In this document: positions 60,765 to 61,461 of the stretch, one piece after another | Layout of the letters: each line of letters opens with the position of its first letter | Position numbering within the stretch: position 1 is the stretch's first letter | Source of the DNA: Escherichia coli | GTDB taxonomy: Bacteria; Pseudomonadota; Gammaproteobacteria; Enterobacterales; Enterobacteriaceae | Strand: one strand, 5' to 3' | Assembly (NCBI RefSeq): GCF_024298765.1 | Contig: NZ_CP101210.1 | DNA length: 64,000 nucleotides | Position numbers and translations under genes: made by a program | The notes under the pieces: generated by a model | Seen by the model: only the letters and a program-made list of their open reading frames with translations | What the model was told of the DNA's origin: nothing | Databases searched by the model: none

Positions 60765-60937
60765 TTCCTCGCACGATATCTTAGCCACCGGATATCCCAC
60801 AGGTGAGCTGTGTAATTGAAGGTTTTTACGTCAGATTCTTTTGGGATTGGCTTGCGTTTATTTCTGGAGCGTTTCGTTGGAAGGTATTTGCAGTTTTCGC
60901 AGATGATGTCGGTGAAACTTCGTCGCTGTCGCCTCAT
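60761..60937 (-). CDS. ninE: NinE
   Basis: 58 aa from [20 protein letters not shown]...; ORF-track start is an upstream extension. Confidence 0.85.
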
Positions 60938-61461
60938 GCCGCCCTCCTGACGCCCTGCCCGATCGCCATCAATGCCGCTTTGGATACGGTAGTAAACATC
61001 CGTCGAGGACTGATGAACGGTCGCCAAATCAGCAGCATGGAGCCTTTGCTGTTTCCCTTCTTCTCCAGCCCTGTCGATGGTTCGATAAAATTAATCCGTC
61101 CATCAGTGATAATGCGAACTTCGTCGACACTCTCCAGAGCCTTGCTGAACCATCCGACTGACATATCCTCTGGCACAAGCATAACTACCGTCTGTCGCTG
61201 TTGTATGCACTGCTCAGCGGCTTTTTCCACCCACGGCCTGATATTGCTGTACGGTGGGTTATTCCAGATTGCACCGTGGCTTACCCACTCAGAATTGAGC
61301 GCGTCGTCGGCCTCAGTTAGCCAGTGAGCACACAGAGCATTTTTGTCGCTCGCTGCAGAATCCAGCCAGAATCCAAACTCAATATCCAGTGCATCAAAAA
61401 GCCAAAGCGGCGTTTGCCAGCAGTCCTTGTCGTGTGCTGGCGTATTTGATTTGATAGTCAT
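60934..61461 (-). CDS. phage DNA N6-adenine methyltransferase
   Basis: 175 aa from [18 protein letters not shown]; NPPY catalytic motif. Confidence 0.8.

Follow-up and report, generated by a model that had tools for sequence, protein, structure and literature searches.

A predicted orphan DNA N6-adenine methyltransferase of the phage T1 Dam family in the nin region of a lambda-like prophage of Escherichia coli

Between ninB and ninE of a lambda-like prophage of Escherichia coli lies a 175-codon open reading frame (ORF) that raises the questions of what kind of methyltransferase it encodes, which site the enzyme recognizes and what the phage may gain from it. The stretch of DNA analysed here (the window) comprises 64,000 nucleotides of contig NZ_CP101210.1 (RefSeq assembly GCF_024298765.1) and leads from the E. 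coli chromosome (ybhP to bioA-ybhB) into the prophage, which occupies the classical attachment site of lambda; for the greater part of the window, identity with E. coli strain 104 is 99.5-100%. In the minus-strand direction, the order of the genes is O, P, ren, an intrinsic terminator, ninB, the methyltransferase gene, ninE, ninX, a DUF1364 remnant, rusA, ylcG and Q, with a porin gene and the lysis genes next. The positions of the features discussed in the text are collected in table 1. The ORF had been singled out in an initial inspection of the DNA letters, hereafter the sequence-only reading, as that of a phage Dam-like N6-adenine methyltransferase.

The ORF extends, on the minus strand, from an ATG at 61461-61459 to a TGA stop codon at 60936-60934. 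The coordinates proposed for it in the sequence-only reading, which left the strand unstated, are exact, as read from the start and stop codons, and RefSeq calls the identical ORF in the same 175-residue form (WP_000153280.1; locus 100% identical). The list of ORFs also offers a GTG at 61521 as a possible alternative start, with a product of 195 residues. This longer version was discarded on the grounds that the homologues begin near the ATG, that RefSeq has the 175-residue form and that the ATG overlaps the ninB stop codon. An antisense ORF of 174 residues (60803-61327, plus strand) was discarded as well, no family match being obtained for it above threshold, and no Rfam family was matched within 59000-64000.

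The protein is matched by PF05869 ('DNA N-6-adenine-methyltransferase (Dam)') with an E-value of 6.4e-65 and 218.4 bits against a cutoff of 28.1, the match spanning protein residues 4-169 and profile positions 1-167 out of 169, and by the NCBIfam equivalog TIGR01712 ('phage N-6-adenine-methyltransferase') with an E-value of 9.7e-80 and 265.9 bits against a cutoff of 97.05. Matches were also found to phrog_111 ('DNA methyltransferase', E 9e-88) and to the 'orphan methyltransferase' models of PADLOC. Judged by their scores, these family matches are far above chance level, and the first two (218 and 266 bits) bear out the family to which the protein had been assigned at the outset. A search of 1.84 billion cluster representatives returned 8784 relatives at E <= 0.001, and conservation was assessed on an alignment of the window protein with 51 diverse relatives, 32-67% identical (52 sequences). 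Across this alignment T17, D34, N68, P70, R122 and F125 are invariant, and at least 90% of the sequences share P18, F31, A37, W59, P69, Y71, A81, L95, W104, N137 and S141. The window protein has all of these residues, and all of the family signatures, namely WxTP, DxAA, NPPY and GR..F, are present in it. The NPPY motif, already pointed out in the sequence-only reading, is indeed found at residues 68-71 with N68 and P70 among the invariant positions, and on alignment of the 52 sequences the motif of the window protein proved intact. Mutation of a proline of NPPY (P65T) abolishes the activity of PamA, a related enzyme of Staphylococcus aureus (bioRxiv 10.1101/2024.04.17.589803). The stretch FWLDSAAS probably represents a degenerate motif I, that is the AdoMet-binding loop, on the basis of the gamma-class-like order of the motifs and of a fold match with M.TaqI that is described below. 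Since all the family-invariant and conserved residues are present, the gene is, by sequence criteria, intact and its product predicted to be catalytically competent. The enzyme is an orphan, with NinB, NinE and NinX as neighbours and no adjacent restriction endonuclease.

Table 1. Positions in the window of the methyltransferase gene, its motifs and neighbours, and of other features of the prophage.
Feature	Position	Strand	Basis or remark
Methyltransferase ORF (175 aa + stop)	60934..61461	minus	PF05869, TIGR01712, RefSeq WP_000153280.1
NPPY codons, residues 68-71; catalytic motif IV (holds flipped-out adenine)	61249..61260	minus	AAC CCA CCG TAC read from sequence
FWLDSAAS codons, residues 31-38; strand beta1 with D34 and A37	61348..61371	minus	conservation, predicted strand 31-34
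WQTP codons, residues 15-18; N-terminal W-x-T-P family signature	61408..61419	minus	T17 invariant, P18 >=90%
ninB (orf), recombination mediator, upstream neighbour	61458..61898	minus	PF05772 E 2.3e-54; RefSeq
ninE, downstream neighbour	60761..60937	minus	PF05322 E 3.4e-42
ATGA overlap, ninB stop/methyltransferase start	61458..61461	minus	sequence
ATGA overlap, methyltransferase stop/ninE start	60934..60937	minus	sequence
Intrinsic terminator between ren and ninB	61923..61946	minus	terminator scan; region about 99% identical to lambda
Satellite-like element, roughly 10.9 kb	~37870-48763		inside lambda-E-type major capsid gene
Capsid gene fragments	37089-37865 and ~48754-48999	minus (both)	
DUF2971 protein, 301 aa, satellite cargo slot	38014-38919	plus	PADLOC candidate defence family PDC-S31, E 1.8e-32
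Nu1-type small terminase subunit, full-length, satellite	39029-39577	minus	PF07471 E 6e-84
OmpC/NmpC-like porin gene, between Q antiterminator and lysis genes	57955-59052	plus (opposite strand)	PF00267 E 5e-157

The O-P-ren-ninB block that precedes the gene is about 99% identical to lambda. Both borders of the gene are ATGA overlaps, as is the lambda ninB/ninC junction, and such junctions are typical of nin regions (PMC8022706). The overlap with ninB suggests that translation of the two genes may be coupled. On alignment with lambda, homology runs through ninB to the ATGA junction, is lost, and comes back at the start of ninE, lambda having ninC and ninD in the interval. The proposal that the methyltransferase gene replaces ninC/ninD in the nin region thus holds to the letter, the alignment breaking and resuming at the ATGA junctions, and at the level of sequence the gene is a cassette swap with its boundaries exactly at these junctions. 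Homologues 42-53% identical to the enzyme are found in nin-like or replication modules with no adjacent NinB, so that an obligate partnership with NinB is not supported. In four database entries (P0002, P0013, P0117 and P0011) the methyltransferase is fused to NinE, NinB or RusA domains; since ATGA overlaps link the genes, these Dam+NinE, Dam+NinB and RusA fusions are most simply regarded as products of single-base frameshifts or as assembly artefacts. Between ninX and rusA (60230-60424, minus strand) RefSeq marks a DUF1364 pseudogene remnant lacking the N-terminus. The 64-residue ORF at this position has no Pfam match, and the remnant appears to be the scar of an earlier recombination event in the nin region.

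The model of the protein calculated with AlphaFold2 from the 52-sequence alignment consists of one domain (mean pLDDT, 94.7; pTM, 0.90). In the N-terminal half, a helix (residues 19-29) is followed by a strand (31-34) ending with D34, by a mostly irregular stretch (35-63) and by a second strand (64-67) that leads to NPPY; the rest comprises a helix (75-88), a strand (92-97), a helix (103-109), a strand (114-119), two strands (141-146 and 155-160) and a C-terminal helix, and the long 120-140 loop carries R122, F125 and N137. The model has the class I SAM-methyltransferase fold with no separate target-recognition domain. Its best structural matches are the catalytic domains of adenine-N6 methyltransferases, the closest solved folds being those of PCIF1/CAPAM, the cap-specific mRNA m6Am methyltransferase, and of the gamma-class M.TaqI, which are 15-17% identical to the window protein, far larger, and provided with extra substrate-recognition domains of their own, the substrate of PCIF1 being RNA caps. 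With PCIF1 the resemblance is distant (identity, 15%; TM-score, about 0.6), and nearly equal scores are obtained with gamma-class DNA methylases. A search of the PDB with the protein sequence returned chance matches only, e.g. SdiA, and a search with the 52-sequence profile only Med31, through a chance 'WCNPPYS' match; in both searches of the PDB, the PF05869 family is without any solved structure. From the model, the enzyme may be described as a stripped-down gamma-like catalytic domain in which Rossmann strands 2 and 3 are reduced. Recognition of GATC would then fall to loops within the catalytic domain, because a separate target-recognition domain is lacking, and the most evident candidate is the conserved loop at 120-140.

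The term 'Dam-like', by which the sequence-only reading had described the enzyme, is appropriate for the reported GATC specificity but not for ancestry, PF02086 (MethyltransfD12, which includes E. coli Dam, T4 Dam and DpnM) being unmatched, with PF05869 as the sole Pfam family reported at E <= 0.01, and the protein belonging to a separate small family with the T1, HP1 and VT2 enzymes. The alpha-class E. coli Dam, T4 Dam and DpnM share with it the reported product, G(m6A)TC, the Rossmann-like methyltransferase fold and a (D/N)PPY loop. The alpha-class order (an N-terminal FxGxG, a central target-recognition domain and DPPY in the C-terminal half) is not that of the window protein. Nor does it have the marks of the MT-A70 proteins, namely DPPW, a match to the MT-A70 profile and METTL3/14 as closest structures, or those of the non-specific beta-class enzymes, its 175 residues including neither FxGxG nor a target-recognition domain. 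The beta-class M.EcoGII and Hia5 consist of about 290-350 residues with an N-terminal DPPY, a central target-recognition domain and a C-terminal FxGxG (PMC5778455, PMC3299994), and with these features they were rejected as relatives. M.EcoGV/M.EcoPA8orf6770P and M.EcoGI/GII are likewise orphan adenine methyltransferases carried by lambdoid or Stx prophages, but they differ from the window enzyme in family, motifs and prophage position: M.EcoGI/GII are beta-class and non-specific (M.EcoGII, 349 residues; PMC5778455), and M.EcoGV/M.EcoPA8orf6770P is an MT-A70 protein with DPPW, encoded near the left end of Stx phages (PMC10810198). The Stx-phage 'prophage rRNA methyltransferase' of 2023 was rejected as a description of the window gene, since it is gp5, an MT-A70 protein with DPPW. 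The prophage 'Dam homolog' of EC958, M.EcoMIV, was rejected too, as a PF02086 protein, and the 'not transcribed' result reported for it was not applied here.

As to the target, the window protein is 100% identical in amino acid sequence to orf32 (NP_050531) of the Stx2 phage VT2-Sakai, and the copy of phage 933W (ST933Wp34) is 99% identical to it. Because orf32 is the sole methyltransferase annotated in VT2-Sakai, it should correspond to M.EcoVT2Dam; the 299-residue orf4 of the same phage was considered as an alternative candidate and rejected as a DUF551 protein. M.EcoVT2Dam is listed in PMC6602927 among orphan methyltransferases and described there as 'known to target 5'-GATC-3'', with Radlinska and Bujnicki 2001 as the source. 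The 2001 assignment was reportedly obtained with the cloned, over-expressed gene, and conditions of over-expression can give off-target methylation (PMC10810198). The genes of orf32/M.EcoVT2Dam, 933W, Phi24B, HK97, HK544 and Sf101 have the 528 bp of the window gene and its position in the order ninB-dam-ninE. The window copy is found in a prophage of the lambda-immunity type, with lambda O/P and at lambda attB, whereas M.EcoVT2Dam is found in an Stx phage, there being no other substantive difference between the two.

T1 Dam (ST20, 237 residues) is also a PF05869 protein, 36% identical to the window protein, with WxTP, DxAA, NPPY and GR..F common to both; the T1 protein differs in being extended by 46 residues at the N terminus and in having an insert of 14 residues ahead of GR..F. 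It reportedly methylates GATC (Auer and Schweiger 1984; Scherzer et al. 1987). Like the window enzyme, it is an orphan encoded in an early/replication module, although T1 is a virulent phage, unlike the window prophage. HP1/HP2 Dam are placed in PF05869 alongside the window enzyme. A further member of PF05869 with the NPPY motif, 34% identical to the window protein, is PamA, from the prophage mosaic phi11 of S. aureus, which has 141 residues and is devoid of the C-terminal strand and helix of the window enzyme. PamA makes S. aureus DNA sensitive to DpnI, which indicates GATC methylation, and its NPPY mutants are inactive (bioRxiv 10.1101/2024.04.17.589803). In the literature PF05869 also models the methyltransferase-like domain of fungal DIRS retrotransposons and candidate oomycete 6mA methyltransferases, and the family would therefore have eukaryotic offshoots. 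Along the window, the observed/expected ratio of GATC is mildly lowered in the prophage part, a depletion that is typical of mobile elements and does not discriminate among the hypotheses.

The reading favoured here, to which we assign a probability of roughly 0.85, is that the gene encodes a minimal, stand-alone, AdoMet-dependent DNA N6-adenine methyltransferase of the T1 Dam/HP1 Dam/M.EcoVT2Dam family that would operate in the following way. The target adenine would be flipped into the pocket at the NPPY loop and methylated at N6, the target being, from the specificity given in the literature, GATC, a site common to host Dam. The cassette, translationally coupled to ninB and ninE, would be transcribed from pR after N-dependent read-through of tR2, and the enzyme would act in lytic replication rather than in the stable lysogen. 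There, it would top up GATC methylation on fast-replicating phage DNA left undermethylated by host Dam, so that the progeny genomes would be fully modified. Full modification might, in turn, confer protection against GATC-cutting, methylation-sensitive restriction and independence from the Dam status of the host.

The intrinsic terminator between ren and ninB occupies what we take to be the position of lambda tR2, and because of this position the methyltransferase gene would lie downstream of the point of N-dependent antitermination. In lambda, the genes behind tR2 in the pR operon are delayed-early genes, which are expressed after N antitermination, and the methyltransferase gene would be one of this class. 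The promoter/terminator scan detected no promoter-like site of the methyltransferase's own. The 'dam' gene of Phi24B (CM2), 100% identical to VT2-Sakai NP_050531, is among four genes identified by CMAT that gave a lytic-cycle-linked profile by qPCR (PMC3342100). In lambda and P22, the DNA packaged in virions is undermethylated at Dam sites, possibly as a result of replication outrunning the host enzyme (PMC8022706). Furthermore, stable lysogeny of 933W reportedly requires host Dam, according to work cited in PMC3342100, and because 933W has this need despite its 99%-identical copy, the prophage enzyme seems to be no substitute for host Dam in the lysogen. Completion of GATC methylation on replicating phage DNA would be the most economical role for the phage enzyme. 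No phenotype of deletion or knock-out of the gene was found for any lambdoid phage in the literature searched. In a dam+ host the activity would be invisible when the methylome of a lysogen is compared with that of a cured strain, because host Dam already saturates the motif and the majority of lysogenic cells keep the gene silent.

It is improbable, but worth weighing, that the gene is an inert passenger, intact but never usefully expressed at the window locus for the prophage being crippled. The lambda-E-type major capsid gene is interrupted by the satellite-like element, and IS1 and transposase remnants are found at the tail-fibre end; with its capsid gene split by the satellite, the window copy may rarely act in a productive lytic cycle. 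However, the coding sequence is 100% identical to those of functional phages, the early region has kept the near-identity with lambda described above, and a 10-bp direct repeat, TGCTTGGGTT, borders the satellite on both sides, with copies at 37870 and 48754. When the capsid fragments are joined at the repeat, ...GYVKPKHEVNPQM... and the reading frame are restored, so that precise excision would repair the capsid gene. Moreover, this alternative concerns the locus and not the identity of the gene.

The satellite carries genes for a tyrosine integrase, a primase, SSB, an Icd-like protein, a major capsid protein of its own, a head-decoration protein and a Nu1-like small terminase. Its junction with the capsid gene is present in 31 of the 5426 complete E. 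coli genomes, and the presence of a capsid-forming satellite within this gene of a helper-type prophage merits a separate look. In the cargo slot, where the window has the DUF2971 gene, strain 104 has a DUF262 and HEPN gene pair, the two being otherwise 99.5-99.7% identical around the slot; with different cargo in near-identical surroundings, the position behaves as a swappable defence-gene slot. At the position of the small terminase, the RefSeq annotation of strain 104 has just a short 'hypothetical protein'. The porin gene is a lysogenic-conversion 'moron' of the kind known from DLP12-type prophages. At the chromosomal edge near ybhB (~17300-19800) are found transposase and integrase-core pseudogenes, a gene for an AraC-family regulator and a copy of IS1A, all of which, in the near-identical strain 104, are found immediately beyond the prophage's tail-fibre end. 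The presence of the pseudogenes and IS1A just outside that end suggests that it has been rearranged.

A role of the enzyme as an epigenetic regulator in lysogenic conversion is very unlikely; it would imply that the enzyme is made in the lysogen, methylates host DNA and changes host expression in the manner of PamA. S. aureus is not known to have a Dam, and in such a host PamA reprograms gene expression and virulence; E. coli Dam already methylates GATC, so that extra methylation would add little. PamA, a PF05869 homologue, does raise S. aureus virulence through its methylase activity (bioRxiv 10.1101/2024.04.17.589803), and the Dam protein of Phi24B was detected with an antiserum raised against lysogen cultures, the lytic-linked qPCR profile of the same gene pointing, however, to a spontaneously induced subpopulation (PMC3342100). 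The lack of a promoter-like site of its own and the location behind tR2 in the repressed pR operon also argue against synthesis in the lysogen, as does the reported requirement of 933W lysogeny for host Dam. The suggestion of the sequence-only reading that the methyltransferase might alter host gene regulation is, on these counts, unlikely to apply to the window copy, with its place behind tR2 and with the identical Phi24B gene linked to the lytic cycle (PMC3342100).

A further, very unlikely alternative is that the enzyme is not truly a GATC DNA methylase in vivo, its specificity being relaxed or directed to another target (single-stranded DNA or RNA) or its activity depending on a partner protein. 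The absence of a target-recognition domain from its 175 residues, the RNA cap methyltransferase PCIF1 as closest solved fold in a family with no solved structure, and translational coupling to ninB, which encodes a single-stranded-DNA-binding protein, are all compatible with it. A precedent exists in M.EcoPA8orf6770P, annotated as a GATC DNA methylase, which methylates 16S rRNA when bound to PNB-2, and the over-expression behind the VT2 GATC data falls under the off-target caveat of the same work (PMC10810198). However, the precedent belongs to another family (DPPW, MT-A70), the likeness to PCIF1 is remote and nearly equalled by that to gamma-class DNA methylases, distant homologues away from ninB make an obligate NinB partnership unlikely, and GATC methylation has been reported in different hosts for VT2 Dam, PamA and T1 Dam. 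It is likewise a long shot that the enzyme, in a manner coupled to NinB, might serve substrates out of reach of host Dam, for example RNA, single-stranded DNA or DNA in recombination intermediates, an idea consistent with PCIF1 as the closest fold and with the Stx-phage 'GATC methylase' that turned out to be an rRNA methylase. If so, the true role of the enzyme in lambdoid development would still have to be found.

With the orphan GATC methyltransferase as the preferred reading, its gene is not a new one; it is abundant, and standard pipelines annotate it correctly. At the DNA level (at least 95% identity) it is present in 1565 of 5426 complete E. coli genomes (about 29%), a single genome having as many as five copies. 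It is also present in 244 phage records, among them many Stx1/Stx2 phages, HK544, Sf101 and lambda-like isolates, the flanking genes there being ninB and ninE in every case. By tblastn, relatives are found in 2134 phage records, which represent many genera. Annotations of the gene date back to the genomes of HK97, 933W and VT2-Sakai, and a curated equivalog model exists for its product. The pipelines name it 'Dam', and beyond the common fold the enzyme is unrelated to host Dam, so that the name should not be taken as a statement of ancestry. Methylome studies of lysogens in dam+ hosts are blind to the activity of the phage methyltransferase. The questions raised by the enzyme are modest ones, namely how a protein of 175 residues reads GATC and what the enzyme gives the phage.
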